Shown piece after piece: positions 8,168 through 53,723 of a stretch of 53,723 nt of DNA. Source of the stretch: Lentimonas sp. (GTDB lineage Bacteria > Pseudomonadota > Alphaproteobacteria > Rickettsiales > UBA1997); assembly GCA_047628655.1 (NCBI GenBank), contig JBLHVR010000002.1, forward strand, positions 1 to 53,723. Reading direction: 5' to 3'. Numbering within the stretch: position 1 is the first letter of the stretch; each line of letters opens with the position of its first letter. The notes beneath the pieces are model-generated. The model saw only the letters and a program-made list of their open reading frames with translations. It was not told where the DNA came from and ran no database searches. The translations under genes and the position numbers were made by a program.

Positions 8168-8218
8168 TGAAAGTTTAAAAATTATTTAGAAGATAAATTG
8201 TGAATTTACTTAAGAAAT

Positions 8219-9508: not shown

Positions 9509-9599
9509 TTTCTTTAAAAATAAGTTTATTTGAAAAAATAAGAAGAAGGTTTAGAGTTACGGGATTCTCTTACATCAACCCCGTAAATTCAACAACAAA

Positions 9600-10730: not shown

Positions 10731-10739
10731 ACTTTGGAT

Positions 10740-10958
10740 TTATTTCGGGTTAATTTCACCAGAAGAAATTCTTGAAGAAGTACGGGATTTTATTTCCGGG
10801 TTACTGGTATCAGCCAAATCTGGCAATTCAACTTCACTGCCATCATTTTCAAACATCCAACCCACACTCTCTTTAACTTTCCCAGAATAGTTAACTCCTA
10901 AAAAGAAAGTGCAAGCTGAGAATAATAAAATGAAGATTAATTCTAAGGATTTGGTCAT
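10740..10958 (-). CDS. small hypothetical lipoprotein
   Basis: 72 aa with lipobox LLFSAC and an acidic/Ser-rich mature part. It starts 3 nt after the pdhC stop, so it is probably co-transcribed. No family assigned. Confidence 0.5.
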   Translation of the reverse strand: MTKSLELIFILLFSACTFFLGVNYSGKVKESVGWMFENDGSEVELPDLADTSNPEIKSRTSSRISSGEINPK

Positions 10959-10961
10959 ATT

Positions 10962-12197: not shown

Positions 12198-12274
12198 AGA
12201 TATTTAATTTTAAATTTAATTTTTTGTTAAGGAATCTGTAGGGCCGGCAGTTTATTTATTGATGATTGAAATGT

Positions 12275-12541
12275 CTATAAAATTTGCCCCAAATCATGAA
12301 ACTTTCTAATTTCCGCAATTAAAAATAGATATTCTTCCGGAGTGGAAGATTTATTTAGAATCCAATCATAAATCATTGCGTCATCTTCATTAATTAATTT
12401 AGAATAAATGTTTAATTTTACATCATCAAAATTATTAATTTCACTTTGAGCAAACTTACCCAGCAGGATATCGGTTTCTTTGCATCCGCGATGAAGTGAG
12501 CGATAAAGAGCGGTTTTGATCAATAATTCTTTGTTTGGCAT
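12275..12541 (-). CDS. sdhE: succinate dehydrogenase flavinylation factor SdhE/SDHAF2 family
   Basis: 88 aa. HRGCKETDILLGKF matches the R-G-x-x-E-x-D-x-x-L motif of the family, followed by NEDDAMIYDWI. Confidence 0.75.
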   Translation of the reverse strand: MPNKELLIKTALYRSLHRGCKETDILLGKFAQSEINNFDDVKLNIYSKLINEDDAMIYDWILNKSSTPEEYLFLIAEIRKFHDLGQIL

Positions 12542-12548
12542 CAGCTAT

Positions 12549-13181
12549 TTAAAAAAATAAGTTTAAGAACCAGTCTTTAACTAGAACAATTGCTTCTACG
12601 CCTAGCAAAATTGTTAAAGTTGTCATTAATACTCCAAGACAGCCAAGCAAAAGACCAATTAAAATAATTACTCCGTCTTTACTTAAAAGACCAAAGGAGG
12701 CAATCATCACCCCAACACCTGGAATAAAGTTAGAAAAAGGAATAGGAATTAAAATTGATGCTGAAAAAACAAAGCAAAATAAGCCAATTACTTGACTAAA
12801 AAATGGTGAACTCAGAGGAGATAATCTTGGCTTCACAAAGCTTTCAGCTTTCCTTAAATAAGGAGCGCTTTTCTCAACCATCTTAGCCAATAAACTTCTT
12901 TTAATTGACATATTAGTAATTCTTTTCGGCAATTTTGGCGAGTGATAGCCAAGAATCATTTGAAATGAAAAGAACATCATGGGAATGGCAATTAAACTAG
13001 GAAGCGGAGGTGGTAAGGGGACAAAAATTGGCAAGGAAAAAATTGTCATCACTAAACCAAATCCTCCAACATCCATTGCAACTAGCAAATCTTTTATTAA
13101 AATTCGGTCATTAGTTGTTTTAACGACATTTTGCAGAATTTCAGTTGTGACGGTTTTTTTCTTTTTAAACTTATCAATCAC
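12549..13181 (-). CDS. ExoD-family (exopolysaccharide synthesis) membrane protein
   Basis: GGFGLVMTIFSLPIFVPLPPPLPSLIAIPMMFFSFQMILG is typical of ExoD. Multiple TM segments; GTG start. Confidence 0.8.
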   Translation of the reverse strand: MIDKFKKKKTVTTEILQNVVKTTNDRILIKDLLVAMDVGGFGLVMTIFSLPIFVPLPPPLPSLIAIPMMFFSFQMILGYHSPKLPKRITNMSIKRSLLAKMVEKSAPYLRKAESFVKPRLSPLSSPFFSQVIGLFCFVFSASILIPIPFSNFIPGVGVMIASFGLLSKDGVIILIGLLLGCLGVLMTTLTILLGVEAIVLVKDWFLNLFF

Positions 13182-13185
13182 CTAT

Positions 13186-13362
13186 TTATTTTTCTTGATT
13201 TTTGTCTTCGATATTTTTTGCATCCGATCCTTCATCTTTAACATTTTTGCGGAAATTTTTAATTCCTTTGCCTAAATCTCCCATTAAATTGGGAATCTTT
13301 CCAGCACCAAAAATTACAACAATTATTACCAAAATTAAAACTAATTGTAAGGGTCCTAACAT
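13186..13362 (-). CDS. tatA: twin-arginine translocase subunit TatA/E
   Basis: My own translation gives [58 protein letters not shown]. This is one TM segment followed by the FGxxKxPxLxxxLGxxIxxF motif. ATG at 13362-13360, TAA at 13188-13186. At 58 codons it falls below the ORF-track cut-off. Confidence 0.85.
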
Positions 13363-13371
13363 ATTTTTTAT

Positions 13372-14364
13372 TTAATTAAGGTTGAATGTTTTTTCAAGCT
13401 CACTCCACTCTCTTTGGCTCAAACCACTTCCTTCTTGGGTAACATTTTCACCTTTCAGTTTTCTCTTTAGAACTTCAACAGCAGGACCAGAAAATTCTTT
13501 ACCAGATTGGCGATATTTCACAAAAGCTTCATAACAATGTGGAACCCATTTTTTGGTGATTTCTAACATTATACTAGCATATTCGCGAATTTCATATTGA
13601 GCGTGAGAATCAGCCCTTAAGAACAAAAAGTTTAGAAGATTATGTAAATCAATTTTCCAATACCACTGCGTGTAACAATTAATTGGCAAATTCATTCTAG
13701 CTAGTTCTCTGGCTAAGCCATCTTTTGATTCATCAACAATTTCGCCATTTCTATCTTGATTGATCATATCTAAATAATGATCGTAACATTGTTTGGCATC
13801 AGATTTAAGAAGATCTAAAACTTTTTTTTGCTGGTCTATAGTTAATTCCTTACTTTCATCACGACCTTGATGATTAATTTTAGATTGCGGGGCCAAAGAC
13901 ACAGCTTTTGGAATGTAGAATTCATCTTCCATAATTGAATATCTAGCAGAATATTCATTTACTGAAGCAGTTCTGTGACGAATCCATTGTCTTGCAATAA
14001 AAATTGGTAGCTTGATGTGAAATTTAATTTCACACATTTCAAAAGGAGTAGTGTGGCGATGAGCAAGAAGATAATTAACTAAACCTTTATCAGCATTTAC
14101 TTTTTTGGTTCCGGCGCCATAAGAAACGCGCGCAGCTTGAACAACTGAAGAATCATTTCCCATGTAATCAACAACGCGGACAAATCCATGATCCAAAACT
14201 TCAAACGGTGTATATAAAATTTCTTCTAATTCTTGCGAGACAGGACGAATAGTTGTAGATTTTACATTGCGTAAATCTTTGATTTCTTCTAATTGTTCTG
14301 GTTTGATTGTCATTTTTAAAAGAGTGGAATGATTGATTTTTTTGAAGTCAAAAATTCTATTCAA
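13372..14364 (-). CDS. thyX: flavin-dependent thymidylate synthase ThyX
   Basis: ThyX signature [14 protein letters not shown]. The start may be the internal Met at 14310 (MTIKPEQ), which would leave room for divergent promoters with uvrC. Confidence 0.93.
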
Positions 14365-14388
14365 GCAGCGCTAAAAATCTAGTAATAA

Positions 14389-16167
14389 ATGTTAGAAGAA
14401 ATAAAAAACCAAATTCTAAAATCAACTAAATCTGCCGGGGTTTATCAGTTCCTAGACGACGCCAATAAAGCGCTTTATGTGGGTAAAGCGAAGAATTTAA
14501 GAAATCGCCTAAAAAATTATTTAGATCAATCAAGGCTTGGAAGTAGAATTAGAATTATGACATCCAAAGCGACAAAATTAGAGATAATTACCACCAAAAC
14601 TGAGGCAGATGCTTTGCTTTTAGAATGTAATTTGATAAAAAAATTAATGCCGCGCTACAATATTTTACTGCGCGATGACAAATCCTTTGCCAATATTATG
14701 GTCGATACATCTCATCAATTTCCGTCAATTTCAAGGCATCGTGGTAAAAAAATTATTAAGGGAAAATATTTTGGTCCTTTTGCCAGTGGTCTTGCTGTTG
14801 GTGAAACGATTGATCATTTAAAGAAAAGTTTTCTACTTAGAAGCTGCTCAGATAATGAGTTTAAGAATAGAAAGAAACCCTGCCTGGAATATCAAATTAA
14901 AAGATGCAGCGCGCCTTGTGTCTCTTTAGTTAGTGCCAAAGAATATGACAAATTAATCACTCAGGTTTTAAACTTTCTGAGTGGAAAAAGCTCCAATTTA
15001 CAAGAAGAATTGGCGCAAAAAATGCAGGAATTTAGCAATGATTTAGAATTTGAACAATCCCGAATTCTACGCGACCGAATTAGAGCATTGTCGGCCATTC
15101 AAGCCAAGCAACATATCCATTTACCAAAAGATGAGAATATTGATTTTATTGCTCTTACCAGAAATGAGAATTTAGCTTGTATTGTGGTGTCATTTTTCAG
15201 AAATGGTAATAATTATGGATCTAAGCCATATTTTTTAAATATTGCCAATGATGATAAAGAAGAGGAAATTTTAAATGCATTTTTAGAACAATTTTATTCC
15301 GATAACGCATTGCCCGATTTTATCATAAATAACATTCTAGATTGCCGCATTGACCTTGGAATAGCTAAATTAAAAATAACCAACCCCAAGCAAGGTTTAA
15401 AATTCAACCTTTTGCAAGATTATTTAAAATTAGCAACAGAGCATCTTAATAAAAAACTAAATACTCAAATTAAAGATTTAGAAATGCTAATTGAGATTAA
15501 AAATCTCTTTGATTTACCGAAAATTCCCCAAAGAATTGAAATTTACGATAATAGTCACATTTCAGGTAGTTTTGCTGTGGGAGCTTTTGTGGTTTCTGGG
15601 AAAGATGGATTTATCAAAAGTTCTTACCGAAAATTTAATATTAAATTAGAGGAATTAGATAAAAAAGATGACACCGGTTTTTTAAAACAGGTTTTGGCTA
15701 GAAGGTTTAAAAAAAGCGAAGAACAAATTATTCCAGATTTAATAATTATTGATGGTGGAAAAGGTCAATTAAGCGCTGCCCATGAAGTTTTTAGCGATCT
15801 TAGTGTGGATGTAAATTTTGTTGCAATGTCGAAGGGGAAAGATCGCAATGCTGGAGAAGAGTTTTTTCACAGAGTTGGGAAGTCCAGCTTCACCTTAGAT
15901 AAAAATTCGCCTCTAATGTTTTATTTACAGCGCTTAAGAGATGAAGCTCATCGTTTTGCCATTGGTTTTAATCGCGCCAAAAGAGCAAAAGCAATTACTA
16001 AATCAGAGCTTGATGAAATACCTAATATTGGCCCCAAAAGAAAATCTCTATTATTAAATCATTTTGGTTCAGTTTCCGCAATTAAACAGGCCAGCGAAGA
16101 AGATTTGACTATGGTTAAGGGAATTAACAAAAATTTTGCTAATAAAATTGTCGCTTTCTTTGGTTAA
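14389..16167 (+). CDS. uvrC: excinuclease ABC subunit C
   Basis: GIY-YIG N-terminus (GVYQFLD...LYVGKAKNLRNR), UVR domain, C-terminal (HhH)2 region. Length 592 aa. Confidence 0.95.
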   Translation: MLEEIKNQILKSTKSAGVYQFLDDANKALYVGKAKNLRNRLKNYLDQSRLGSRIRIMTSKATKLEIITTKTEADALLLECNLIKKLMPRYNILLRDDKSFANIMVDTSHQFPSISRHRGKKIIKGKYFGPFASGLAVGETIDHLKKSFLLRSCSDNEFKNRKKPCLEYQIKRCSAPCVSLVSAKEYDKLITQVLNFLSGKSSNLQEELAQKMQEFSNDLEFEQSRILRDRIRALSAIQAKQHIHLPKDENIDFIALTRNENLACIVVSFFRNGNNYGSKPYFLNIANDDKEEEILNAFLEQFYSDNALPDFIINNILDCRIDLGIAKLKITNPKQGLKFNLLQDYLKLATEHLNKKLNTQIKDLEMLIEIKNLFDLPKIPQRIEIYDNSHISGSFAVGAFVVSGKDGFIKSSYRKFNIKLEELDKKDDTGFLKQVLARRFKKSEEQIIPDLIIIDGGKGQLSAAHEVFSDLSVDVNFVAMSKGKDRNAGEEFFHRVGKSSFTLDKNSPLMFYLQRLRDEAHRFAIGFNRAKRAKAITKSELDEIPNIGPKRKSLLLNHFGSVSAIKQASEEDLTMVKGINKNFANKIVAFFG

Positions 16168-16221
16168 TCTATAAAAAACCAGTTCGAGCGACAATTCAAT
16201 TTTTAGAATAAAAGCGCTAAA

Positions 16222-18024
16222 TTAACCAACTTGACTTTGTGGCAAAGTTTTTTTCTGTCTTAGTGAAATTCCAAGCTCTTTTAACTGCTGCTCTGAAACT
16301 TCCGCTGGAGCGTCCATCATTAAATCTTGTGCTTTACCATTCATTGGAAAAGGAGTTACTTCGCGAATATTTTCTTCATCAGCCAAAAGCATGATAATTC
16401 GATCAATTCCAGGAGCAATTCCACCATGAGGAGGAGCGCCAAATTTGAAAGCTTCCAACATTGCGCCAAATTCTTTTTCCACTGTTTCTTTGCCATATCC
16501 TGCAATTTCAAAAGCTTTATACATAATTTCTGGTTTATGATTTCTAATTGCGCCAGATGAAAGTTCAACACCATTACAAACCACATCATATTGGAAAGCT
16601 TTAATTTCTAATGGATTTTTGGAATGTAAATCATCCATTCCACCTTGAGGCATTGAAAATGGATTATGTGAGAAATCAATTTTCCCAGTTTTTTCATCTT
16701 TTTCATACATTGGGAAGTCGGTAATCCAGCAGAATTTATAAACTCCTTCTTCAATTAAACCTAAATCTTGGCCTAATTTAATACGAACTTGTCCAGCAAT
16801 TCTAACGGCCTCGCTTTCCTGTCCACAAGAGAAGAAAACTGCATCGCCATTATTTAATCCTGCAGTTTCTTTAAGCTCTGCCAATTTTTCAGGACTTAAA
16901 AATTTAGCGATTGGGCCTTTTCCTAAACCATTTTCGTCAAAAATTATGTAAGCTAACCCTTTAGCGCCATTACTTTGAGCAAATTCAATTGTTTTATCAA
17001 AGAATGATCGTGGTTTGGAAGCACATTTTGGAGCTGGAATTGCTCTAATTAATGACCCTGATTCAATGGCGCGAGTGAAAATTGAAAAACCTGACCCCAC
17101 AAAAATGTCGTTAGCCGCAGAAATGATGATTGGATTTCTTAAATCTGGTTTATCAATTCCATATCTTAACATGGATTCGCGATATGGAATATGCGGGAAA
17201 TCACCAGCTGTAACTTTTTTAACTCCATATTTTTCAAAAATATCACGCAGAAGAGGCTCTACAATAGCAAAAACATCTGCTTGAGTGGCAAAGGACATTT
17301 CCAAATCGAGCTGATAAAATTCAGGAGCGCGATCAGATCTTAAATCTTCGTCACGAAAACAAGGGGCAATTTGAAAATATTTATCAAAACCCGCAACCAT
17401 TAAAAGCTGTTTAAATTGTTGTGGAGCTTGTGGAAGCGCATAAAATTTACCATGATGTAAGCGAGATGGCACTAGATAATCTCTTGCTCCTTCTGGGCTG
17501 GAAGCGGTTAAAATTGGAGTTTGAATTTCAAGAAAATTAAGCGCCGTCATTTGCGATCTGATGAAACTAATAACTTGTGACCTTAAAATTATATTATTGT
17601 GAGTTTTTTCACGACGTAGATCTAAAAAGCGATATTTTAAGCGTAAATCTTCAGGATAATGTTCATTTTTATCATTAATTTGGAAAGGTATTTGCTTGGC
17701 GGCAGATTCAATAAATAATTGATCAATTTTAATTTCAATTTCTCCAGTTCCAATATTTGGATTAATTGCTTCATCAGCTCTTTTTACAACATTTCCAATA
17801 ATTGTAATTACAGATTCTAATTTAATTGAAGAAATTTCATCAATGTTCAAACCTGTGTTTGCACTGTCAATAACACATTGCGTAAGACCGAAATGATCTC
17901 TTAAATCAATAAAAATTAAACTTCCATGATCTCTTTTTGAGTGAACCCAGCCAGATAATTTAACTTGTTGATTAATTTGGGAAATAGTTAATTGGCCACA
18001 ATTATGGGTGCGATATTTATGCAT
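16222..18024 (-). CDS. aspS: aspartate--tRNA ligase (bacterial type)
   Basis: OB-fold N-terminus, motif 2 [10 protein letters not shown], motif 3 [13 protein letters not shown]. Length 600 aa. Confidence 0.97.
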
Positions 18025-18095: not shown

Positions 18096-18392
18096 CTAAT
18101 AAACATCGTAAGAATTAGTTCCGCCATGATATAACTTATTGCGGCAAATACTACATTTAGAATTTTTAACTAGAAACAGCTCCATTGCTCGTGGCTCTTT
18201 TAAACATAAAAGCCAAAATACTCCGTGAACCGCAGGCAGGATAACAAGAAGATAGATGAATTTGCTGGTAATAATAAATGCAAGTAGTGAAATCAATAAA
18301 TTCAAAGTTGCTAAAGTATAACTTACGCCCATCAACATTGGTGGTCTAGTTAAACCTAGAAATAGAGGGTCGGCTCCGATTGATCCTGACAT
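18096..18392 (-). CDS. virB3: type IV secretion system protein VirB3/TrbD family
   Basis: 98 aa. [32 protein letters not shown] matches the VirB3 signature (L-x-x-x-T-R-P-x-M-x-x-G-V), followed by two TM helices. Confidence 0.8.
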
Positions 18393-31707: not shown

Positions 31708-34700
31708 TTAATCATTAGGTTTTGTAACATCACTTACAAACTTATCAACATTGGATTTTCTGGCTCTTTCTAATGATTTTGAGGCGTAGCTTCCTTTGTT
31801 TATTGCTGATCCCATTGTTCTCCTTGTGTTATTTAGGGTGTTATTTGCTAAATTATATGGGGTTGAATGGCCTTCATTTCTATGATCTTTAGTTACTGAT
31901 TTTGCAGCACTCCATGCTTTACCTGGAGCTGATCTTGCGGAAGTAAATGCATTCCCAGGGGATGAAATAGCTCTATTTGCTCCGTATTGAATTCCTCTGG
32001 CTACGCGCATTGGATCAGTTACGGCACTTCCAACGCTTTTTGAGCCTCTATAAGCAGCTCCTGGTGCTTTACTTAGGCTATGTGCCATTCTGTCTTTTAA
32101 GCCAACACTAACATTTAGATCTTTATTTTTTATAGCACTACCGATATTTGATCTATCTTCATTACTAGCTCCTTTCATAGATTCTTTTAATTGGCTTCCA
32201 GTAATTTTGGAGTTGGCCTTGTCTGGTGACATGTATGAATCATATTTACTTTTAATTTTATTACTTCCCAACTCACTCAAAGTCGCGCTTGCTAATCTAC
32301 TCCTTTCAGTCATGATTTGTTTTGCACCATCGGCAGATAGGCCAAGAGAAAGTCCTTTTCCTAGTTTTGCATTATCTTTTACACCCTGCAGTATTTTTTT
32401 CTGATCTGCGCCAGTTTTAGCTCCTGATAATTGTTTAATTCCTGCTGTCGAATTTTTAAATTTATCTACCGCTTTATCACCAGCTTTATTCATTTCTTTT
32501 CTTTGTGAATCTTCTTTCGCATATTGTTCTTTTGCTTCTTTTTTGCTTTTTTCAGCTTTTTTACCAGAATTGAATAATGCTCTATCAACAGATTGTGTCA
32601 CTCCACTTAATTTACCTCCAATAGCTCCTTTAGCATTTTTAAGTGTTCCTTCTGCTGCCGATTTAATTCCTCCGGATAGCTGACTAGCCCTAATTGAGCC
32701 ACCAATAGCCGCTGCAAGATCGGTTATAAAACCAACAAAACTGTGCATTATTGAGGCAATAATCCATATAAATAAAATTGAAAATAAGGATGGAATTCCT
32801 TCTGGATTCCCAATATTACCCATTTCCCCTTGAGATCCCATAGATGAGGGTAGGGAAGGTAATGTCCAGAAAGATAATAGGCTTATTCTGCTTATTCCCA
32901 TATCAATTACCCACACTTCATCCCAACAGACTCTATATCCAAGTGACATTTTTATTACCTCATACATCATCATATTGAAGAATGCCAAGGTTGTTAATAG
33001 GAAGACTTGCTGCAATGAAAAACCGATTAATTCAGAAAGCCATTTATCGAAGGTTTCTTTGGTTTGATTAAATAGGAGCATGATAAAGAATATTGGCCCC
33101 AATATGAATAAAATTGAAATAAAGACTTGCGCAGTTAGATAAAGTAAGACGGCGTTAGCAACCGCATATATGTAGAGTAAAATACTCATGCCAACTATGT
33201 AGAGATATACCGGACCAAAAAGACTTGCGAAGAGCAAGGCTTGGATTTTTATTAGAGTTGGATCAGAGAATATTAGACCTAGAACCTTATCAACACTGCT
33301 GAATAATATGGCTTTGTCACTATAATCACCACTGGCAATGGCTGAGCTTAATTCAGGCGATTGATCAAATGAGCTAGCCATTAAGAATGTTAGATAATTG
33401 GAACCCTCTTTGAAGAAGTTGACAAATAATGCGTCAAACCACTCCCATCCACCTGGACTGATAAATAGATATACTATGCCAATTTTAATGATTCTGGTAA
33501 TGATTTCTCCTTGAGAGAACTCACTTACGCCCATTAAATATCCGACTCCATAAAAGGTAATCATTAAAATGACGGATATTTGGATGATTGCTTGAAATCT
33601 TGCATCACTGGTAACTTGCTTATATATTCTTTCGGCTTGCCCGATTTTACCTGCTTCTGTTGCACTATTTGGGTCTCCGTCCATTATTTCAATTACTGGA
33701 GAAACAACTTGGTCAACAATGCCAGAGAATTTATAATTATCATTTTCAACCTGAACAATAACTTGGTAACTTCCACTATTATTGTGATATGTATTGGCAC
33801 AATAATATTGTTTTTTGCAATCACTTGATCCCGAACCTATTGACGTCGTACATATTTGACCACTATTGCCCACAATAGCACTTTCGAAAAAGTCGTTATC
33901 TGTTATAACTCCATCACATGCAGTTCCAGAGCAAGAATTTACTAGGTTTGGAGCATTTATTGCGCAATTTCCTATTTCTGGATCTTTGATTTTGAAACTA
34001 ATTCTTAATTTATCTCCACTAGAACAATAGAACTCTCCATTACAACTAGTAACGTCTGCACAAATAAGTCCTTGGTTCAATTTTGATGTAGAGGAATCAT
34101 CGATATAATTTGAACTACGAGCTATAAAACCGCAATTTGAACCTATGCCTCCACAATCAGTATTAGCACTTAAAGTTATATTTGAAGTTGCATCAAGATT
34201 ACAAGATCCCCACTGACTACTACTGCCATGGTTATGGCGATAGAATTTATCTCCATCAAATGTTTCAAATTCAAGGGCAGAATTTGGATTGATGCCTGCG
34301 GATGAATTAGAATTGTTAAATCTTATTAGATCTCCACTTTCATCAAATTTATAATAGCTCTCTATTTCCGGATCTTGAGCTGTTGTGGTTGGGTTTTTAA
34401 TTTTAACTATGTTTGGCTGGTTACCAATTTGAATTGGTATAGTATCAGAAGAGCAATTTACACTAGTGTTGTCCTCTTCTAGGCATAATATTGCTTCTAA
34501 CCATTGACCGTTCTTAAATTCTTGCCTTCCAGATAAATCTACTTTGTAGCCATTTACTCCGTTATATGATGCGCTGTTGCTGGTGACAATATTATCAAAC
34601 GAATCGCCTTTTAAAATTAAGAATGATGCTCTGCCACTAATTTCAGGCATTATAGGATATCTTGATTGATAAATTATGTTGTTATTGTAGGCAGCTCCTT

Positions 34701-37023
34701 CTTTCGAGCCGGTTTTTGAAAAACTAGAAAAATTACCATATGAACCGTTAAATGTCTCCAGCCTTACAGCTCCTTTATATTTAGAATCATCCGCCAAATC
34801 AGAATCTGAAATTCCTGTGGCTGCAGAAATTTTACTAACTTTTCCTTCATAATTTTCTAAATTGTAACATTGGTCCACATCAACAGCAATTGTGGTTGAT
34901 GTTGGGGTATCTCTGTTTTGGGCGGATAAGCAAGAGCTACAAGTTACTGATGTGACGGATGGAGTAATTTGGTCGCATGTGTCAGCATCATAGGTAGATT
35001 GACAACTTTCAATTGGACAAAATGCACTGTCTAAATATGGAGAATCAAAAGCTGCATTATATCCACAATCTGCAGAATATTCTTTACAAAATTTTGTCCC
35101 ATTCGAATTAAATTGAATTATACAATTTGGATTATCAACATTTTCTGGAGCAACTCCTCGACACAGAAAAGCTGGCTTATCGAGAATTATTTGATTTGTA
35201 AAATCATAACCACCAACTTTCATAGCCATACCAACACCGCACCGCCTATTCAAGCCGCTGGTTGCTGTCCACTCGCCTTCCCAGCTTGATGGATCAAAAC
35301 GAAGAATTTGTCCTCTCCTAACATAAATTGTACTAGACCATGTTTTTTGTGGATTACTTGATACTGGTATTGATAAATTTCTTAAAGGATCAGATGTAGA
35401 TGTGGAAAAAGACTCATATTCGTAAAATTCATTATTAACGCCAGAGATTCTATCTCCCAAAGGATTAATGACTCTTCCCTTCAGAACACAGCTTTGACCA
35501 CCAAAACTAGCCGCAGAAGAACCTTGTCCAATAGAAGTAAAGCTGACAAATCCGGATTTATCGATTTTAATATCATGAATTTTGTCACGACGATAAGCTG
35601 TTACCGTTCCACAATTAGTTGTGCCGCCAGCATTGGTGTCATTGGAGGATATGGTAATTGAATCTCCCGATTCTAGAGAGATGTAATTACTGCTCCAACC
35701 AGAATTATTTGTTTCAATGTTGTGATTATTAAGAATATTATTGCCGCTATCCTTTACAGTTGCTACCAGTGGAGATGATGATGTTAAGTCACAAGCATTT
35801 GTGGATAACAGGCTTTTAAAGCTAATTTTAACGGCGTAAGTTTCATTGTTGGTAATTGAAATTGCCGCCGTTGAAATATCTCCAACTATCGCACCTAATG
35901 TAGGGCCGGGAAGTGAGCTACAAGTTGGGCTACAAACCGCACCACTACTTGCGAAGGGGTCACTTGAAAAAGGTGTTAAACCATCTAATTCCCACCTAAT
36001 CATCCCCCCAATACTACCTAAATTATTCATTTTAATTCTCGAATCAATCGCATAATAGGACTGAGCTATTGTGTTGTCGGTTGATGGGTAGCCACTGGCA
36101 GTATTGTAGGTTAGGCTGTTGCATGAAGATTGTGTCTTATCAACAGACCCTGAGTAACTACAAGCCCACAACCTGTCATCAGCAAAAAGGGGGGTTCCTG
36201 TGGTTCCTAATTGTTCGAATGAAGCATCTTTATCAAAGCTGTAACCTAATGGATGAGGAGTTATGAATGCGGCGAGTCTTTTAGCGCCGTTAACAACATC
36301 AGATCTTTGGGAAACAATATCCACATCTCCACCATATTTTATGGCGCTGTTGGTGGGGTCTGTCCAAGACCCACTGAATTGGACTTGTTTTGATATGCCC
36401 TGCGTTAAATCAAGAAATTTATTATCAAAACCAAGCTCTCTAGAATGTTGAGTGTTGTCGGTGCTAAATGCGAATATATTATTTAATATTCCTCCACCAA
36501 GAACAATATTTCCAAAGGCTTTAATACGAATTTTAGACTCGGGACTTATGGTTATTCCAGAATTTCTGCCGGGAATTCGTCTTGTAGTTGAAGTCCAATA
36601 TGGTTCAGAACCTCCCGATGTTGCACTAGAATTATTAGCACAAACTATTCTACATTCTTCAATACAAATTCTTTGAGCAGTACTATTCTCATCAAAACCG
36701 TCACAACCCTTACTATCCTCATTGGAGTAAACCGTACCGCTTGTATCTGTAACGCTAACAGTTCCCATGGTAAAGCAAGATGTTAGTCCGGAACCTTGAG
36801 AATAGTCGCTAACTGGTTTTCCAGAAATATATTCGCAACTCTGGCTCTGAGCGTTAGCTTGGATAGTTAATACTTCTTGCTCATATTCTCCAAAATTTTC
36901 AGCCTCAATACATCCCTCATTACTACAAGAAGAATAGGAGAATAGGAGGAGCAATAGCAATAACGACCTGCCTAAAGTGGTTTTTAGATATTTAGATTGA
37001 ATTAAAGAAAATAATTTTCGCAA
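31708..37023 (-). CDS. giant (1771 aa) VirB6/TrbL-like type IV secretion inner-membrane protein with a large Cys-rich exported N-terminal domain and a basic low-complexity C-terminal tail
   Basis: TTG start and signal peptide (LLLLLLLFSYSSC). Residues ~1141-1445 are polytopic and include LGPIFFIMLLFNQTKETFDKWLSELIGFSLQQVFLL, matching the conserved TrbL/VirB6 core. Residues ~34-1140 are hydrophilic S/T/N/G/C-rich. Residues ~1446-1771 are K/S/A/G-rich. The ORF itself is certain; the family call rests on motif recognition. Confidence 0.75.
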   Translation of the reverse strand: MRKLFSLIQSKYLKTTLGRSLLLLLLLFSYSSCSNEGCIEAENFGEYEQEVLTIQANAQSQSCEYISGKPVSDYSQGSGLTSCFTMGTVSVTDTSGTVYSNEDSKGCDGFDENSTAQRICIEECRIVCANNSSATSGGSEPYWTSTTRRIPGRNSGITISPESKIRIKAFGNIVLGGGILNNIFAFSTDNTQHSRELGFDNKFLDLTQGISKQVQFSGSWTDPTNSAIKYGGDVDIVSQRSDVVNGAKRLAAFITPHPLGYSFDKDASFEQLGTTGTPLFADDRLWACSYSGSVDKTQSSCNSLTYNTASGYPSTDNTIAQSYYAIDSRIKMNNLGSIGGMIRWELDGLTPFSSDPFASSGAVCSPTCSSLPGPTLGAIVGDISTAAISITNNETYAVKISFKSLLSTNACDLTSSSPLVATVKDSGNNILNNHNIETNNSGWSSNYISLESGDSITISSNDTNAGGTTNCGTVTAYRRDKIHDIKIDKSGFVSFTSIGQGSSAASFGGQSCVLKGRVINPLGDRISGVNNEFYEYESFSTSTSDPLRNLSIPVSSNPQKTWSSTIYVRRGQILRFDPSSWEGEWTATSGLNRRCGVGMAMKVGGYDFTNQIILDKPAFLCRGVAPENVDNPNCIIQFNSNGTKFCKEYSADCGYNAAFDSPYLDSAFCPIESCQSTYDADTCDQITPSVTSVTCSSCLSAQNRDTPTSTTIAVDVDQCYNLENYEGKVSKISAATGISDSDLADDSKYKGAVRLETFNGSYGNFSSFSKTGSKEGAAYNNNIIYQSRYPIMPEISGRASFLILKGDSFDNIVTSNSASYNGVNGYKVDLSGRQEFKNGQWLEAILCLEEDNTSVNCSSDTIPIQIGNQPNIVKIKNPTTTAQDPEIESYYKFDESGDLIRFNNSNSSAGINPNSALEFETFDGDKFYRHNHGSSSQWGSCNLDATSNITLSANTDCGGIGSNCGFIARSSNYIDDSSTSKLNQGLICADVTSCNGEFYCSSGDKLRISFKIKDPEIGNCAINAPNLVNSCSGTACDGVITDNDFFESAIVGNSGQICTTSIGSGSSDCKKQYYCANTYHNNSGSYQVIVQVENDNYKFSGIVDQVVSPVIEIMDGDPNSATEAGKIGQAERIYKQVTSDARFQAIIQISVILMITFYGVGYLMGVSEFSQGEIITRIIKIGIVYLFISPGGWEWFDALFVNFFKEGSNYLTFLMASSFDQSPELSSAIASGDYSDKAILFSSVDKVLGLIFSDPTLIKIQALLFASLFGPVYLYIVGMSILLYIYAVANAVLLYLTAQVFISILFILGPIFFIMLLFNQTKETFDKWLSELIGFSLQQVFLLTTLAFFNMMMYEVIKMSLGYRVCWDEVWVIDMGISRISLLSFWTLPSLPSSMGSQGEMGNIGNPEGIPSLFSILFIWIIASIMHSFVGFITDLAAAIGGSIRASQLSGGIKSAAEGTLKNAKGAIGGKLSGVTQSVDRALFNSGKKAEKSKKEAKEQYAKEDSQRKEMNKAGDKAVDKFKNSTAGIKQLSGAKTGADQKKILQGVKDNAKLGKGLSLGLSADGAKQIMTERSRLASATLSELGSNKIKSKYDSYMSPDKANSKITGSQLKESMKGASNEDRSNIGSAIKNKDLNVSVGLKDRMAHSLSKAPGAAYRGSKSVGSAVTDPMRVARGIQYGANRAISSPGNAFTSARSAPGKAWSAAKSVTKDHRNEGHSTPYNLANNTLNNTRRTMGSAINKGSYASKSLERARKSNVDKFVSDVTKPND

Positions 37024-37031: not shown

Positions 37032-38036
37032 TTAAATTTGTTTTATAATTACATCAGCTAATCTTTGAGATTCAGCTAACTTCTTCGAGTTAGCAAAGAC
37101 TAGCGTTTTTCCATCTAATTTTCCATCTAATTTTCCATCTAATTTTTTTGCAAATCCCTTCTCAAACAAATTATTTAAGAATTTTCGATGTTTTAAAGAA
37201 CAAATTTCTGGTGAATCAAAGATATAAATTGACTTTCCAAGAGAACAAATCTCGCAGCACATTGTAATGGAATCACCAGTGGCAATAATTAAATCAGACG
37301 AATAAAGAGCTGCAAAATAAGGGTTGATTTCCTGACATTCTTGCCATTTGAAAAAAGTCTTAGAAAAATTTCCAATTAAATTCTGATCTAAAATTTCACT
37401 AATTTCATTACCGGTTCTTCTACTATCAAAAATAAATAAATGACCATTTAAATTAGAGGATATTTTACTAACCATTTTTCCTAAGTTTTTAGCGGTTTGA
37501 GTAGTAAATTTCCTTGTTTTAGAAGATCCGCCAACCAATAAAGAAATTCTAGGCTTTAGGTTAGTTTCTAAGATATCGGAGAATTTTTCATATTCCTCCT
37601 TAAGCAAATCTTCTTTAATTCGGGTTAATGATCCTAAAATTCTGATGACATTTTTTGCATCATTCTTTCTGTCATGATCTGGTAAGGCCACTAAATTGAA
37701 CTTTTTAAAATTCAAATTTGGGTGCATTATTTGAATTGTAAAAGCTTGGTAATATTTTTTTAGGAAAGCACAAAGGGGAGCGGTTTTTCTGCCGGCAGAA
37801 ATGATGATGTCAGGTTTAGATTTTTGATTGAACAGTTCAAACTTGGAAGATGATTTAATTCCCAATAATCCATTAATTTTTAGAAAATTGGGTATTTTTG
37901 CCCAAAAATTGTAATTAATTTCTTTGATTTTAATTTTACTTTCTGGCAATTTCCTCCAAATAGCCTCTGCAAGACCAAGAGCTTGAGAATAATTTCCAGC
38001 ACGATCATCTTTTAAAACCCAGATTATTTTACTCAT
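37032..38036 (-). CDS. ELM1/DUF1022-family protein (mitochondrial fission ELM1 homolog, putative glycosyltransferase-like)
   Basis: The N-terminus IWVLKDDRAGNYSQALGLAEAI is characteristic of the family. 334 aa. It overlaps coaD by 4 nt and ends 8 nt before the giant gene. Confidence 0.8.
   Translation of the reverse strand: MSKIIWVLKDDRAGNYSQALGLAEAIWRKLPESKIKIKEINYNFWAKIPNFLKINGLLGIKSSSKFELFNQKSKPDIIISAGRKTAPLCAFLKKYYQAFTIQIMHPNLNFKKFNLVALPDHDRKNDAKNVIRILGSLTRIKEDLLKEEYEKFSDILETNLKPRISLLVGGSSKTRKFTTQTAKNLGKMVSKISSNLNGHLFIFDSRRTGNEISEILDQNLIGNFSKTFFKWQECQEINPYFAALYSSDLIIATGDSITMCCEICSLGKSIYIFDSPEICSLKHRKFLNNLFEKGFAKKLDGKLDGKLDGKTLVFANSKKLAESQRLADVIIKQI
37111..37146. repeat. perfect 3 x 12-nt tandem repeat (ccatctaatttt) inside the ELM1-family gene, encoding (KLDG)3
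   Basis: Units at 37111-37122, 37123-37134 and 37135-37146 are identical. The protein reads KKLDGKLDGKLDGKTL. Confidence 0.95.
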
Positions 38037-38533
38037 TTTTGTAAAATTTTATTCAACTCTTGCTCAACATTCTTTGAAACAAATCCTGAAACATCTCCAC
38101 CTAATCTGGCAACTTCTTTAACCAATTTTGAAGCAATAAAATGGTTAGATTCTGATGCTGGAAGAAAAATAGTTTGAATTTCAGAATTAAGCTTAGAATT
38201 CATTCCAGACATTTGAAATTCATATTCAAAATCAGAAACAGCTCTAAGGCCACGAATAATGATGTTAGATTGTTTTTCCTTAGCAAAATTAATCAACAAA
38301 CCTTCAAAACCAACAACTTCCACGGTTTTATTTGGGTCGAGATTCTTTATGTCTTCTTCAATTAATTTAATTCTTTGCTGAACTGAAAAAATTGGGCTTT
38401 TGGAAGTGTCCTTAGCAACTCCAATAACTAGGTGATCGACAATTTTTAAAGTTCGCTTAATAATGTCTAAATGGCCAAAAGTAATGGGGTCAAAAGTTCC
38501 AGGATAAATGGCTTTTGTAATTGAATGATTCAT
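38033..38533 (-). CDS. coaD: phosphopantetheine adenylyltransferase
   Basis: AIYPGTFDPITFGHLDII (T/HxGH motif). Length 166 aa. Confidence 0.95.
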   Translation of the reverse strand: MNHSITKAIYPGTFDPITFGHLDIIKRTLKIVDHLVIGVAKDTSKSPIFSVQQRIKLIEEDIKNLDPNKTVEVVGFEGLLINFAKEKQSNIIIRGLRAVSDFEYEFQMSGMNSKLNSEIQTIFLPASESNHFIASKLVKEVARLGGDVSGFVSKNVEQELNKILQK

Positions 38534-41254: not shown

Positions 41255-43261
41255 TTAAAGTAGATTTTTAAGTAAGTTTGTTGCCACTGCAATTCCGTCT
41301 TGTTTAGAACCGCCACACATGGCTAAATCTGGTTTTCCACCACCGCCTTTGCCGCCAATTTTTTCGGAAATTTGGGGGATTATTTTTCCAGCATGAAACT
41401 TGGAAGTTAAATTTTGGCTAATTGCCAAAACTGCGGAAACTTTTTCATTTTCAGAACCAAAAAAGAGAATGATCGAGTTTTCTTGGTAATCTTTTTGATT
41501 CTTAGTTTCGGTGGCTAAATCGCGAACTTCTTTGGCGTTGGCGCCTTCAAAGAAATGATTAATGAAATTAATTTCACCAATTTTTTGAACAGAAAAATTA
41601 CTGGAATTAGCTAATTTCTCTTTTTTCAGTTTATCAACTTCCTTTTGAAGCACTTTAATTTCACCAATTTTACCCTCGCCAAGCTGATAAATTTTATTTA
41701 CTGCATTTTTCATTGAGGCAATTTCTCCGGCGCTCACAACTTCATTTTCAATGTTTTCATCGCTAAAAAAACTTAATTGGTCAAAGCCTTTTTTGGCGTT
41801 GTGAAATTCGTTTGCAGGCATTTGAACTTCTTCAAATTGCTGTTTAACTTTTAATGATTCAATTAAAGACTGTAATTTTCTTTCCTGAAGCCTTGAATAT
41901 TCCAGCGCAAAAAAACCGGTTTTAGCTTCAATTCTTCTAATTCCAGCCGCAATTCCTTTTTCTGAAATAATTTTAAAAGCACCAATATTTCCAGTAGATT
42001 TGGCATGAGTTCCGCCACAAAGCTCAATGGATTCTCCAATTTGTAAAACTCGCACTACATCGTCATATTTTTCACCAAAAAGCGCCATGGCGCCTTTTTC
42101 TCTGGCCTGCTCAATTGGTAAAATTTCGGTAGTAATTGGGCTGTTTTGACGAATAAGAAAATTGACTAAATCTTCAATTTGGTCCACTTCTACTTGAGTT
42201 AAAGCCTTATTGTGATTGAAGTCGAAAGTGAAGGCAGAATCATCAACATTTGAACCTTTTTGGCTAATGTGAGAACCGAGAACTTGCTTTAAAACAAAAT
42301 GCAAAAGGTGAGTTGCCGAGTGGTTTTGAGACCTAAATTGACGACTGCGATTGTTTACTAGTGCAATTATTTCATCGCCAACTTTAAACTTTCCACGAAT
42401 TTCTAAGGCGTGATGAATGAATAAATCTTCCGCTGCTTTTTTGGCTTCAAAAACATCGATGACATTTTCAAGATTAGAGTAATTTATTAATGCATTTTCC
42501 TTAAATTCAGACTTTAAAATTAAATTACCATCATCACCTTTTTGACCACCAGAAGTTGCGTAAAAAGGAGTTTGATCAAGAATTATTTCAATATTCTTGT
42601 CACTTTCTTTAGCTTCCATAACCTCTTCACCATTTTGCAAAATACTTAAAATTGTGGCAGATGATTTGGTAGATTTGTAACCCAAAAACTGAGTTTTTGG
42701 TAATTTATTTTTCAACTCGAAATAAATGTTGTTGTCTGCGACTTCACCGCTTCCTGTCCAATTTTCTGAACTGCGTTTTTTCTGTTTCTCCATCGCCAAA
42801 TTAAAACCTTCAATATCAACATCAATTTGTTTTTCTTTGAGAATATCTTGCGTTAAATCGAGTGGAAAACCGTAAGTGTCGTAAAGTTTAAAGGCAATTT
42901 CTCCGGAAAATTTGTTAGTTTTTAAGTCAATCTTTCCAATTTCTTCACTTAAAATTTTCATTCCATCGCCAAGAGTTTTTTGAAATCTTTCTTCTTCGGT
43001 TTTTAAAGTGTCAATAATTGTGGCCTGCGCGCGAACTAACTCTGGAAAAGCTTCACCCATTTCAGCAATTAAAGCTGGAACTAGCTGGTGCATTACTGGA
43101 TTTTTAGAGCCTAATTTGTGAATGTGGCGCATGGCGCGGCGCATTATTCGGCGTAAAACATAACCGCGACCCTCATTGGAAGGCATAACACCATCAGCGA
43201 TGATGAATGATGAAGACCGAAGATGATCGGTTATTACTTTGTAAGATGGATTGATTTTCAT
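41255..43261 (-). CDS. alaS: alanine--tRNA ligase lacking the N-terminal ~230-240 residues (no motif 1/2 catalytic core); retains the rest of the aminoacylation domain, the tRNA-recognition and editing domains, and C-Ala/DHHA1
   Basis: It starts MKINPSYKVITDHLRSSSFIIADGVMPSNEGRGYVLRRIMRRAMRH, which aligns to about residue 235 of canonical AlaRS. Editing-domain motifs HSATHLLH and CGGTH are present, and the C-terminus has GGGGKPDLA. An in-frame TAA lies at 43288-43286. Confidence 0.85.
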   Translation of the reverse strand: MKINPSYKVITDHLRSSSFIIADGVMPSNEGRGYVLRRIMRRAMRHIHKLGSKNPVMHQLVPALIAEMGEAFPELVRAQATIIDTLKTEEERFQKTLGDGMKILSEEIGKIDLKTNKFSGEIAFKLYDTYGFPLDLTQDILKEKQIDVDIEGFNLAMEKQKKRSSENWTGSGEVADNNIYFELKNKLPKTQFLGYKSTKSSATILSILQNGEEVMEAKESDKNIEIILDQTPFYATSGGQKGDDGNLILKSEFKENALINYSNLENVIDVFEAKKAAEDLFIHHALEIRGKFKVGDEIIALVNNRSRQFRSQNHSATHLLHFVLKQVLGSHISQKGSNVDDSAFTFDFNHNKALTQVEVDQIEDLVNFLIRQNSPITTEILPIEQAREKGAMALFGEKYDDVVRVLQIGESIELCGGTHAKSTGNIGAFKIISEKGIAAGIRRIEAKTGFFALEYSRLQERKLQSLIESLKVKQQFEEVQMPANEFHNAKKGFDQLSFFSDENIENEVVSAGEIASMKNAVNKIYQLGEGKIGEIKVLQKEVDKLKKEKLANSSNFSVQKIGEINFINHFFEGANAKEVRDLATETKNQKDYQENSIILFFGSENEKVSAVLAISQNLTSKFHAGKIIPQISEKIGGKGGGGKPDLAMCGGSKQDGIAVATNLLKNLL

Positions 43262-46190: not shown

Positions 46191-47720
46191 ATGACCAAGA
46201 AAATAGTTCTGTCTTTTATAACCATTACAATTATTTCTTTTGCTGCTTTTGGTGCTTTTTGGTTGGTTAAAACCAACACAATAAAAAAGCATCTTGCCGC
46301 TTTTCAGGCGCCTGGATTTTTTCTTACATCCTCTTCAGTGTCGGTTAGCGGTTTTCCTTTGAAACAAAATTTCTCTGTTAAAAACCTCATCATTAAACCA
46401 AGCGCTCCAGAATATTTAGATGACAATCTAGATATTGACAAAGATAAGAAAAGTGCATTGAACAATAATTCTTTAAACATTCCGTCTTTGAATTTATCCG
46501 CTGGAATTTTCTCCAATAATTTCTCTCTTACCATTAAAGATGATTTAAAAATTGGTGAAGAGAATGAAATGTACGATGTTAAATTTAATCAAATTCCCCT
46601 TGCTAATATTATTATTGAAGGCACAGAAGTAACAAGATTTTCTTACCAAGGCCAAGGTTACAAAATTTCAGATGCGGAAAATAATGTGGTTTTTGAAAAT
46701 GGCAGCTCCAAGATTGATTTTTCATTAATTGTTGTAGAAAATCAGAAAATTGCCAAATTGTTGGCCGATTTTAAAGAAATGGGAGATTTATTCTCATTAG
46801 AACAATTGGATTCTGAGATGAAGCGTCAATCTGATCTTTTAGAAATTGTTAATTCAATTGATAAAAATGCAGAAACGAATTCCCCAGAAGATAAAAATGA
46901 AATGGAACAAATATTATTAGATATTACAGAAGCTCGTACTGACAAAACTTTAAACTATCAAGATCTTACTATTAGAAATATTCATTTAGATTTGGAATTA
47001 TTCTTAGAAAATAATTCCAATAAAAATTCTAATTTACCAGATTTGGGAAATGGCAGCACTGATAATCTTACTCCTTTTGAGCACAACGCCATTAAATCAG
47101 TTAAAATTAATAATGTGGAATTATCTAACCCTATTTACAAATTTAATATTAATGGAAATCTAAGTAATTTAGACAGTAAGGATTCTGAGCCATCTTTTAA
47201 TTTGTCACTTAAAGTTGAAGAATATGAAACCGTTCTAACCTATTTGCAGCAAGCTGTGAATAATTTTGAGAATTTGATGCATTACATTTCCAAAAAAGAA
47301 TCTGAAGATAAAAATTTGGAAGAAATAATTGCTGTTGCTCCTGCAGAATTGCCGGAAGTTTCTGAGCAATTAATAGAAGAATCTACTTCGCAAATTGAAG
47401 ATCAAAATATTACTCCTGAAGAAGACGGCATTGGATTTGATGTTGTTAAAACGATTCGCGAAGTTGCTCAGAAAAATATTGCTACGGGTGAAAGAATTGC
47501 CATTTTTGATTTTGGACAAGATGCAAACGGAAGCGTAATTATTAATAACATTCCGTTCTTAGAAATAATGTTGCGTTCAATTACAGCAGCTGCTGATGAA
47601 GCTGGAGTTAATGAATCTTCCGATCCTACTTTAGATGATTTTGCTATTGATCCTGTATTAATTGAAAATTCAGCTCCAATTCCACAGCTCACCCCTATTA
47701 AAATCTCTCCAACCAATTAG
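46191..47720 (+). CDS. membrane-anchored hypothetical protein (possibly DUF2125 family)
   Basis: 509 aa with one N-terminal TM segment, then VSVSGFPLKQNFSVKNL, reminiscent of alphaproteobacterial DUF2125 proteins. The central region is acidic/Asn-rich. The family call is tentative. Confidence 0.6.
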   Translation: MTKKIVLSFITITIISFAAFGAFWLVKTNTIKKHLAAFQAPGFFLTSSSVSVSGFPLKQNFSVKNLIIKPSAPEYLDDNLDIDKDKKSALNNNSLNIPSLNLSAGIFSNNFSLTIKDDLKIGEENEMYDVKFNQIPLANIIIEGTEVTRFSYQGQGYKISDAENNVVFENGSSKIDFSLIVVENQKIAKLLADFKEMGDLFSLEQLDSEMKRQSDLLEIVNSIDKNAETNSPEDKNEMEQILLDITEARTDKTLNYQDLTIRNIHLDLELFLENNSNKNSNLPDLGNGSTDNLTPFEHNAIKSVKINNVELSNPIYKFNINGNLSNLDSKDSEPSFNLSLKVEEYETVLTYLQQAVNNFENLMHYISKKESEDKNLEEIIAVAPAELPEVSEQLIEESTSQIEDQNITPEEDGIGFDVVKTIREVAQKNIATGERIAIFDFGQDANGSVIINNIPFLEIMLRSITAAADEAGVNESSDPTLDDFAIDPVLIENSAPIPQLTPIKISPTN

Positions 47721-52955: not shown

Positions 52956-53723
52956 TCACGCATCTTTCAGGATTTTTATCACAAATCTTTTTGTGTATTG
53001 ATCGTATTGATACCAATCTCCATTTTCATCTTGAAAATATCCTGTCATGTGACCATTTCCTCCTGCTCCATCTCGATCAATTCTAAAAGCAATAGCATTA
53101 TTCTCCGCCGCATTCTTCCCAATCATCTGCCCTGAGAATATATTATCTGCAATTTCTTCATCACTCAACCCAACTGCGTTACCTGTAAAGATAGAAGAAT
53201 AACCTCCAATTAAGCCAGATAGTTCTATTATTTGCGCATTACTTAACCCACCAAAGTTGTTATCTAATATTTCCGCACCTAATTCTCCAGCAACCCCACT
53301 AACGGCTCCACTAGCACAATCATTTCCTCCAGCTTCTGCCATTCCACAACCCAAGATGGCATGAAGTGCCAATTGTTTTGTTTTGCCAATCTCTCCAAGT
53401 TTATAATCTGTTCCAATCTTATTGGCAGCCAAACTTCCAGCCACAGCAATAACCATATTAAACAATTGGTCTGTGAATGCTTCACTAAATGAATCGCCGT
53501 TAATAGCAGATTGTACAGCACTGCTAGATGCACTGGAAACAACAGCTCTTGCTGCAATTCCAGTGTTACTACCAGAAGAAATAGCCCCACTTAAAAGATT
53601 AGTATCAACCCAATTCGTAGCACCTAAAGTTAATGCCGCAGTTGCACCAGCAACAGCGTAACTTTCAAAAGCTTCTCTGCTAGTTGTTGCATCCCAAGTT
53701 GCTTTGTTAATGTCCTTAACTTG
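52956..53723 (-). CDS. C-terminal end of a large polymorphic toxin / filamentous-hemagglutinin (CdiA/FhaB-like) protein, with pre-toxin VENN-type motif; gene continues beyond the window
   Basis: I translated the frame upstream of the track's TTG start and it stays open to position 53723 (...QVKDINKATWDATTSREAFESYAVAGATAALTLGATNWVDTNLLSGAISS...). LALHAILGCGMAEAGGNDCASGAVSGVAGELGAE and GKNAAENN (AENN at 53108-53097) are typical of the PT-VENN region. 46 aa follow the motif. Confidence 0.8.
   Translation of the reverse strand, partial: QVKDINKATWDATTSREAFESYAVAGATAALTLGATNWVDTNLLSGAISSGSNTGIAARAVVSSASSSAVQSAINGDSFSEAFTDQLFNMVIAVAGSLAANKIGTDYKLGEIGKTKQLALHAILGCGMAEAGGNDCASGAVSGVAGELGAEILDNNFGGLSNAQIIELSGLIGGYSSIFTGNAVGLSDEEIADNIFSGQMIGKNAAENNAIAFRIDRDGAGGNGHMTGYFQDENGDWYQYDQYTKRFVIKILKDA

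Follow-up and report, generated by a model that had tools for sequence, protein, structure and literature searches.

A giant VirB6-like gene of a Rickettsiales-like bacterium encodes a predicted lipoprotein with a large cysteine-rich exported head

The window analyzed here is a 53,723-nt stretch of contig JBLHVR010000002.1 (assembly GCA_047628655.1), and its longest open reading frame (ORF) is a gene on the reverse strand (31708..37023, −) that we call the giant gene. Its 1771-aa product, an extended VirB6-like protein and predicted lipoprotein, joins a signal peptide, an exported cysteine-rich head of ~1100 aa, a polytopic VirB6/TrbL core, and a low-complexity tail. This architecture and the export of the protein are demonstrated or strongly inferred, and we hold both with high confidence. 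We favor, with moderate confidence, the reading that the giant protein is an extended VirB6 subunit of a chromosomal type IV secretion system (T4SS) whose genes are scattered as in the Rickettsiales rvh system, with a disulfide-rich head that would lie in the periplasm and might serve in a stalk or in contact. The analysis covered this window and, in other genomes, 10 kb on either side of each giant-gene locus.

The giant gene starts with TTG at 37023 and stops at 31708–31710. Its reading frame and part boundaries agree with an initial annotation, made from the sequence alone, which had described the largest gene in the window as encoding a three-part protein of 1771 aa. It is a real gene, neither a chance frame nor an artefact. 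A chimera created by misassembly, two genes read through as one, or a pseudogene in decay could be suspected from the unusual TTG start and from the origin of the homologs, all of which come from metagenome-assembled genomes (MAGs) or metagenomes. However, the gene contains no frameshifts, its N-terminus and its head–core junction are both conserved, and the identical continuous architecture recurs in over 100 assemblies produced independently in many studies, including one contig of 1.2 Mb and others of 240–370 kb. Because the protein has 20 full-length homologs (40–50% identity), 57 genomic loci, and 171 clusters of relatives, we regard an artefactual origin as effectively refuted, with next to no probability left to it.

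Judged by its sequence, the core (residues 1141–1445; 32689..33603, −) is a true TrbL/VirB6 domain, as had first been proposed. Pfam PF04610 matches residues 1152–1357 at E=4.1e-15, scoring 56.6 bits where the cut-off is 25.9. Conservation within the family peaks at the motif LGPIFFIMLLFNQTKETFDKWLSELIGFSLQQVFLL (residues 1308–1343; 32995..33102, −), in which P1310, F1312, T1321, and W1328 are invariant across 17 family cores and canonical VirB6, and F1325 is invariant as well. W1328 aligns with a Trp of the canonical VirB6 of Mesorhizobium and is presumably the counterpart of the “essential Trp” of Agrobacterium tumefaciens VirB6. The core is also the most conserved part of the protein, measuring 305 aa in 17 of 21 homologs and 298–304 aa in the other four. 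Hydropathy averaged over the 17 aligned cores gives about seven membrane segments, in keeping with the five or more hydrophobic segments counted initially. These fall at residues 1143–1167, 1172–1190, 1331–1357, and 1407–1434 and within a 64-residue block (1259–1322) of about three spans, and an acidic loop of 68 aa occupies residues 1191–1258.

Searches outside the family placed the core in the same group. A tblastn search of 72,556 plasmids returned 35 matches, all inside residues 1134–1406 and none to the head; those listed were annotated as “type IV secretion system protein”, apart from one unannotated record. One plasmid match occupies the VirB6 slot, between virB5-position genes and virB8, of a complete Mesorhizobium virB1–virB11 operon. 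In a pairwise BLASTP comparison, the core and Mesorhizobium VirB6 share 25% identity over 233 aa (E=7e-14). Residue 47 of the Mesorhizobium protein aligns with residue 1153 of the giant protein, so the head appears as a pure N-terminal addition to an otherwise ordinary VirB6. The NCBIfam VirB6 equivalog model NF010426 (~295 positions) reached 15.9 bits (E=0.006), under its cut-off of 206 bits, and by that profile the giant protein is no equivalog of the modeled VirB6. A homolog search with the core by itself yielded only fragments, and a core-profile search whose seed included the Mesorhizobium sequence was dominated by VirB6 proteins of Hyphomicrobiales.

The signal peptide (residues 1–33; 36925..37023, −) has a basic n-region, a Leu-rich h-region, and a lipobox-like YSS-C ending in Cys33. 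Across about 50 orthologs, Cys33 never varies, only S, A, or G occurs at position −1, the hydrophobic h-region is retained, and [S/A/G]-Cys is followed by xDQGCIEADDFGEY. The −3 residue of this ortholog is a non-canonical Tyr, and distant family members carry the canonical lipoboxes LAAC, LSSC, and IAGC, with the pattern L-[AS]-[AGS]-C. The signal is thus predicted to be of the lipoprotein type; the signal peptide reported initially is present, but it is not a plain one.

In A. tumefaciens VirB6, the N-terminus is periplasmic and the C-terminus cytoplasmic (PMC7648143). Taken with the roughly seven membrane segments of the core, this topology would place the head in the periplasm, on the VirB6 platform, and the tail in the cytoplasm. 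The acidic loop at residues 1191–1258 and the K-rich residues that follow the last transmembrane segment of the core fit such an N-out, C-in arrangement. The presumably cytoplasmic tail (residues 1446–1771; 31711..32688, −) comprises 326 aa, with K 13.5%, S 13.5%, A 12.3%, and G 9.8%, and holds 60 K+R against 29 D+E. A low-complexity, basic, K/S/A/G-rich tail of ~325 aa had been described, and for this protein the description stands. However, the basic charge is no family trait: the tail is the least conserved part of the protein, and in most orthologs it runs to 330–660 aa with K+R roughly equal to D+E.

The exported head (residues 34–1140; 33604..36924, −) is rich in S (14%), G (8.9%), N (8.1%), and T (7.5%), is net acidic (78 K+R vs. 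122 D+E), and contains no hydrophobic segment between the signal peptide and residue 1143 by hydropathy. Both its composition and its hydropathy thus bear out the S/T/N/G-rich exported region without a transmembrane segment that had been read from the sequence. Residues 1–1140 hold 40 cysteines, 39 of them in the head plus Cys33, and one more lies in the core. The earlier count of about 40 was therefore right, but its even number may not carry over to disulfides, since acylation of Cys33, if it occurs, would leave 39 cysteines for pairing. The cysteine clusters named at that stage lie at residues 120–128, 364–368, 695–698, and 994–1000. In the homolog alignment about 30 head cysteines are invariant or nearly so, which fits an oxidising compartment. 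The last of the named clusters, CNGEFYC, falls within an insertion at residues ~951–1000 (34024..34173, −) with a column conservation of 0.08 across 21 homologs and a predicted local distance difference test (pLDDT) score under 50. This Cys-rich insertion is private to the present ortholog.

An AlphaFold2 model of the head, built on a 21-sequence alignment, consists mostly of strands and is of moderate confidence (pLDDT 69.6, predicted TM-score [pTM] 0.58). Self-BLAST found no internal repeats, and we describe the head as a single-copy, non-repetitive, beta-rich module. It had been said to belong to no recognizable family, and profile and structure searches led to the same result. A Pfam scan of the giant protein gave nothing at E≤1 besides TrbL, so VirB5 was not among the matches; NCBIfam likewise yielded no head match, and Pfam applied to 20 divergent family members matched the head to no known family. 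Neither repeats nor a profile match pointed to a known lectin, carbohydrate-binding module (CBM), or repeat-adhesin family. A search of PDB sequences with the family profile recovered only low-complexity noise in the tail and did not find VirB6. With Foldseek, the best PDB match to the head model had E=0.011 and a template-modeling (TM) score below 0.1, the weak neighbors being generic CBM, CUB, and jelly-roll beta-sandwiches, and nothing in PDB or BFVD fell under E=0.003 or had a TM-score as high as 0.1.

To follow the head beyond close orthologs, we searched a head-only profile exhaustively against 1.84 billion representative proteins, in which each cluster is a representative at 50% identity. 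This returned 171 clusters, 149 of them at E≤1e-10. The long matches measure 1500–2700 aa, with the head starting at residues ~10–60 and therefore N-terminal, and the short ones look like fragments. TrbL was present in all 23 family members checked with Pfam, including all 20 divergent ones. As far as sequence searches can detect, the head is exclusive to its fusion with TrbL, and the head–core architecture appears to be kept across the 171 clusters. Variation is concentrated outside the core: column identity is about 0.55 in the head vs. about 0.8 in the core, and the head has lineage-specific insertions.

Larger variants occur within the family. One distant member, from Lake Biwa MAG LBMAG18 (P0074, GDX35531.1), reaches 3387 aa by way of an extra ~2000-aa N-terminal region that precedes the head and TrbL core and contains three SUEL (galactose/rhamnose) lectin stretches and a glycine-rich domain. 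On another metagenomic contig (L058), tandem giant VirB6-like paralogs of 1942 aa (4139–9967) and 2269 aa (10001–16810) follow coaD and an ELM1-like gene, the latter (3118–4137) lying immediately ahead of the first paralog. Two further entries, P0177 and P0306, both on 61.7-kb contigs, suggest a second tandem case.

All 57 giant-gene loci in species-representative genomes come from MAGs. About 41 of them bear the label Rickettsiales, Rickettsiaceae, or Rickettsia; the remaining loci are assigned to Alphaproteobacteria, Pseudomonadota, or (uncultured) Rhizobium/Rhizobiaceae. Lake surveys are the source suggested by many of the isolate names, and the locus on the 1.2-Mb contig (L044) is labeled Rickettsiales UBA1997, described as a freshwater family whose members have small genomes and live as epibionts on cryptophyte algae (bioRxiv 10.1101/2023.01.31.526412). 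Among 30 family clusters examined there was no cultured organism, only MAG or metagenome entries. We take the host to be an uncultured Rickettsiales-like alphaproteobacterium, probably of fresh water.

Two lone T4SS genes lie in the window, each surrounded by housekeeping genes. A VirB2/TrbC pilin gene of 165 aa (23820..24317, +; Pfam PF04956, E=1e-9; also NCBIfam VirB2) is 7.4 kb from the giant gene, and a VirB3 gene of 98 aa (18096..18392, −; Pfam PF05101, E=1e-24; NCBIfam NF010474, 128 bits vs. a cut-off of 74) lies 13 kb away, upstream of aspS and not followed by virB4. These solitary genes indicate that the genome encodes a scattered T4SS of the rvh-like kind. Singly scattered vir genes, an “archipelago”, are a hallmark of the Rickettsiales rvh system (PMC2653234). 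The kinship with enlarged Rickettsiales VirB6 paralogs suggested in the initial annotation is consistent both with these two genes and with the Rickettsiales labels of the MAG homologs. In five other loci, VirB2 homologs lie 3.5–4.5 kb downstream of the giant gene. From its domain and the scattered VirB2 and VirB3 genes, we consider it likely that the giant protein belongs to a T4SS.

The pilin gene has a peculiarity of its own. In addition to a signal peptide, its product carries an unusual N-terminal extension of ~60 residues that holds 8 of the 10 cysteines of the pilin and resembles the giant head in being rich in S, T, and N. VirB2 orthologs in loci L023, L030, L031, L037, and L041 align over the C-terminal pilin part only.

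The immediate neighbors of the giant gene are housekeeping genes, with sucA and sucB downstream. Directly upstream is an ELM1-like gene (37032..38036, −; Pfam PF06258, E=2e-63), preceded by coaD (pantetheine-phosphate adenylyltransferase; 38033..38533, −; NCBIfam TIGR01510, 190 bits) as the first gene of the string, with divergent rlmH beyond. The ELM1-like gene, whose product is a homolog of the mitochondrial fission factor ELM1 and has no NCBIfam match, stops 8 nt ahead of the giant gene's TTG, so the two are probably co-transcribed. In 39 of the 57 loci an ELM1-like homolog precedes the giant gene on its strand, and coaD lies upstream in 37; the full string from divergent rlmH through coaD and the ELM1-like gene to the giant gene recurs in 35–40 loci, followed by variable downstream genes. 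Distant family members adjoin thiC or other core genes.

Two other ideas about the locus were set aside. The string could be imagined as a glycosylation operon, an ADP-heptose/glycosylation unit acting on the S/T/N-rich head, but its first gene is a true coaD, and N-x-S/T sequons are not enriched in the head (16 seen vs. about 19 expected). An origin in a mobile element was rejected, as the GC content of the window is uniform (about 0.32–0.37) without an island signature, the flanks are housekeeping genes, and plasmids match the core only.

These observations can be drawn together in a tentative mechanism. The head would pass through Sec, receive an acyl group at Cys33, and fold oxidatively in the periplasm, seated on the VirB6 platform from the periplasmic side, while the disordered tail stayed in the cytoplasm. 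In the structure of the minimized T4SS of R388, a VirB6 pentamer bears a VirB5 pentamer to make up the stalk on which VirB2 pilin assembles. The rvh systems have duplicated VirB4, VirB8, and VirB9, multiple extended VirB6 paralogs, and no VirB5, and it is because of the absence of VirB5, together with the R388 arrangement, that we propose that the fused head could supply a periplasmic stalk, tip, or contact structure in cis. It may extend as far as the outer-membrane complex or the surface of the cell, and it may aid epibiont-type bacteria in engaging eukaryotic partners. Such a stalk or contact role for the head is speculation, and we hold it to be doubtful. A fuller version would make the giant protein a three-in-one T4SS part: a lipid anchor like VirB7, a periplasmic stalk or tip that replaces VirB5, and the VirB6 platform, all in one chain whose pentamer would connect the inner membrane with the outer-membrane complex or the surface; this we consider quite improbable.

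Several results weigh against an extended VirB6 subunit with such a head. The conserved neighbors of the giant gene (coaD, the ELM1-like gene, and rlmH, or thiC in distant members) belong to housekeeping functions, and in none of the more than 57 loci does virB4, virB8–11, or virD4 occur beside it within 10 kb. Structure prediction is of limited help: the head model is of moderate confidence only and is beta-rich, whereas VirB5 is a helical bundle. For the core, the AlphaFold2 model (pLDDT 57.6, pTM 0.27) is too poor for its Foldseek search, which found nothing in PDB below E=1, to bear on the VirB6 fold.

The same neighborhood invites a T4SS-independent explanation, in which a VirB6-like domain has been exapted as the anchor or channel of a large periplasmic, disulfide-rich lipoprotein module that serves the architecture of the cell envelope or some other housekeeping task there and is co-expressed with the ELM1-like protein. 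It would account for a gene that is always solitary amid core housekeeping genes, that lies only 8 nt behind the ELM1-like gene in a strongly conserved string, that sits beside thiC in distant members, again without T4SS genes, and that usually occurs once per locus in the 57 species-level genomes, as for a core function. However, the missing T4SS linkage is weak evidence because Rickettsiales T4SS genes are typically scattered, and lone VirB3 and VirB2 genes do occur in this very window. The VirB6 residues conserved in canonical T4SS proteins, W1328 included, are also invariant in the family, and we know of no TrbL-domain protein with a role outside T4SSs. We therefore judge an envelope protein independent of secretion to be unlikely.

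A further possibility is that the head mainly serves as a host-attachment adhesin or lectin that tethers an epibiont to algal or protist cells, with secretion-channel work secondary. This would suit the reported surface exposure of extended VirB6 proteins of Anaplasma, Wolbachia, and Rickettsia (PMC7648143) and the life of UBA1997 Rickettsiales on the surface of cryptophytes (bioRxiv 10.1101/2023.01.31.526412). It would also suit the lower conservation of the head relative to the core, its lineage-specific insertions, and its weak structural resemblance to CBM, CUB, and jelly-roll sandwiches. The SUEL-lectin stretches N-terminal to the head of the Lake Biwa protein are the only hint of a binding function, and they occur in a distant member. 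Still, the giant protein matches no adhesin, lectin, or CBM family significantly, and its head lacks repeats. About seven transmembrane segments tie the polypeptide to the inner membrane, so surface display would need an unproven route or cleavage, whether that means passage through the outer-membrane complex of the T4SS, sorting of the lipidated N-terminus by a Lol-type route, or proteolytic release. Moreover, the many invariant residues and cysteines suggest a conserved structural role over a fast-evolving receptor binder. An adhesin in the main therefore seems to us improbable, and an extended VirB6 subunit of a scattered T4SS is the explanation that we prefer.

How far the giant protein departs from known systems depends on the comparison. 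Canonical VirB6/TrbL proteins (A. tumefaciens VirB6 and R388 TrwI, about 300–380 aa) share with it PF04610, the P/F/T/W motif, and a polytopic core with a large acidic loop. However, the giant protein is 5–6 times longer, adds a lipoprotein signal, an 1100-aa head, and a 326-aa tail, and has no operon. TraG of F-type plasmids and of integrative and conjugative elements likewise fuses a VirB6-like polytopic domain to a large extracytoplasmic domain, which in TraG acts in cell–cell contact, mating-pair stabilization, and entry exclusion (PMC7648143). By contrast, the domain order is reversed: the hydrophilic domain of TraG is C-terminal, where the giant protein has its low-complexity tail, and the giant head is Cys-rich. 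In the plasmid tblastn search, no TraG matched outside the core. Resemblance to VirB5 and VirB7 would be one of function only: the head is possibly a periplasmic module sitting on VirB6, as VirB5 does, and the predicted N-terminal lipidated Cys possibly recalls VirB7, a small outer-membrane lipoprotein. Neither has sequence or fold similarity to the giant protein.

The closest parallels are the extended VirB6 proteins of Rickettsiales, in which a TrbL/VirB6 core is flanked by large hydrophilic extensions; they comprise RvhB6a–e of Rickettsia and VirB6-1 to VirB6-4 of Anaplasma, Ehrlichia, and Wolbachia, with VirB6-3 the nearest in plan. Among these, VirB6-3 and VirB6-4 of Anaplasma are much larger than RvhB6a–e of Rickettsia. 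The RvhB6a–e proteins measure 674–1154 aa (PMC2653234). Extended VirB6-like proteins are a recognized Rickettsiales subtype, and in Anaplasma, Ehrlichia, and Wolbachia the paralog VirB6-3 is predicted to be a lipoprotein and has TrbL towards its C-terminus (PMC7648143), the same pairing of lipobox and C-terminal-ward TrbL as in the giant protein. The Rickettsiales label of the giant gene's hosts, their scattered T4SS genes, and the occasional tandem duplication, as in rvhB6 arrays, add to the likeness. In the related Deianiraea, the rvh system includes three VirB6 copies and lacks VirB5, and VirB7 was not detected there. Yet the giant gene stands outside a virB3–virB4–virB6 array, solitary behind coaD and the ELM1-like gene; the ~1100-aa head of its product is free of repeats and has about 30 conserved cysteines; and in the exhaustive search the giant-head family was found in environmental sequences only. 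The extensions of RvhB6 and VirB6-3 are compared with the giant head here through their published descriptions.

The general plan of the protein is therefore already known. The literature describes extended VirB6 proteins that carry lipoboxes and hydrophilic N-terminal extensions (PMC7648143), orthologs of the giant protein are automatically annotated as “VirB6-like”, and the novelty claimed in the initial annotation was overrated on this account. Literature searches found no published description of the giant-head family. What appears to be undescribed is the ~1100-aa Cys-rich head, its conservation over 171 clusters, its fixed housekeeping synteny with an ELM1-like gene, and its restriction to environmental, probably extracellular, Rickettsiales-like lineages.

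Elsewhere in the window, a few ORFs deserve mention in their own right. One of 72 aa (10740–10958, −) has a lipobox-like N-terminus, LLFSAC, and no family match; its size is VirB7-like, but a link to the T4SS is unsupported. The alaS ORF (41255–43261, −; 668 aa) is matched by alanyl-tRNA synthetase models only from position ~268 (PF01411, 267–550; TIGR00344, 268–771), and with 154 nt to the next gene, the catalytic N-terminal part is not encoded there; the gene may be split or truncated. The prfB ORF for release factor 2 (RF2; 24837–25781, −) begins at position 28 of the Pfam PCRF model. Its start is consistent with the programmed +1 frameshift that RF2 genes usually carry near their 5′ end. 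An ORF of 509 aa (46191–47720, +) has no Pfam or NCBIfam family beyond a weak, sub-threshold DUF648 match (E=0.004). At the window edge, a 169-aa ORF (52956–53465, −) has a weak, sub-threshold match to DUF637, “possible hemagglutinin” (E=2e-4), and could represent a piece of a filamentous-hemagglutinin or CdiA-like gene.

The wider interest of the giant protein lies in the Rickettsiales rvh system, which lacks VirB5 and encodes multiple extended VirB6 paralogs, the extensions of which still lack an assigned role. How such systems form a stalk or pilus and make host contact is an open question, as is, in the literature, how VirB2 polymerizes there without VirB5. If the three-in-one reading were true, it would reveal how Rickettsiales-type systems that lack VirB5 assemble a stalk or pilus and touch eukaryotic hosts from outside the cell, whereas a T4SS-independent function, if true, would make this the first TrbL-domain protein with another role. 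The head family is a large, well-conserved, foldable, presumably periplasmic extension, and its 171 clusters are usable for covariation and structure work. Because the hosts of the giant protein are probably extracellular, epibiont-type relatives of intracellular pathogens, the family could offer a tractable window on VirB6 extensions and on host contact at the transition from free-living to host-associated life.

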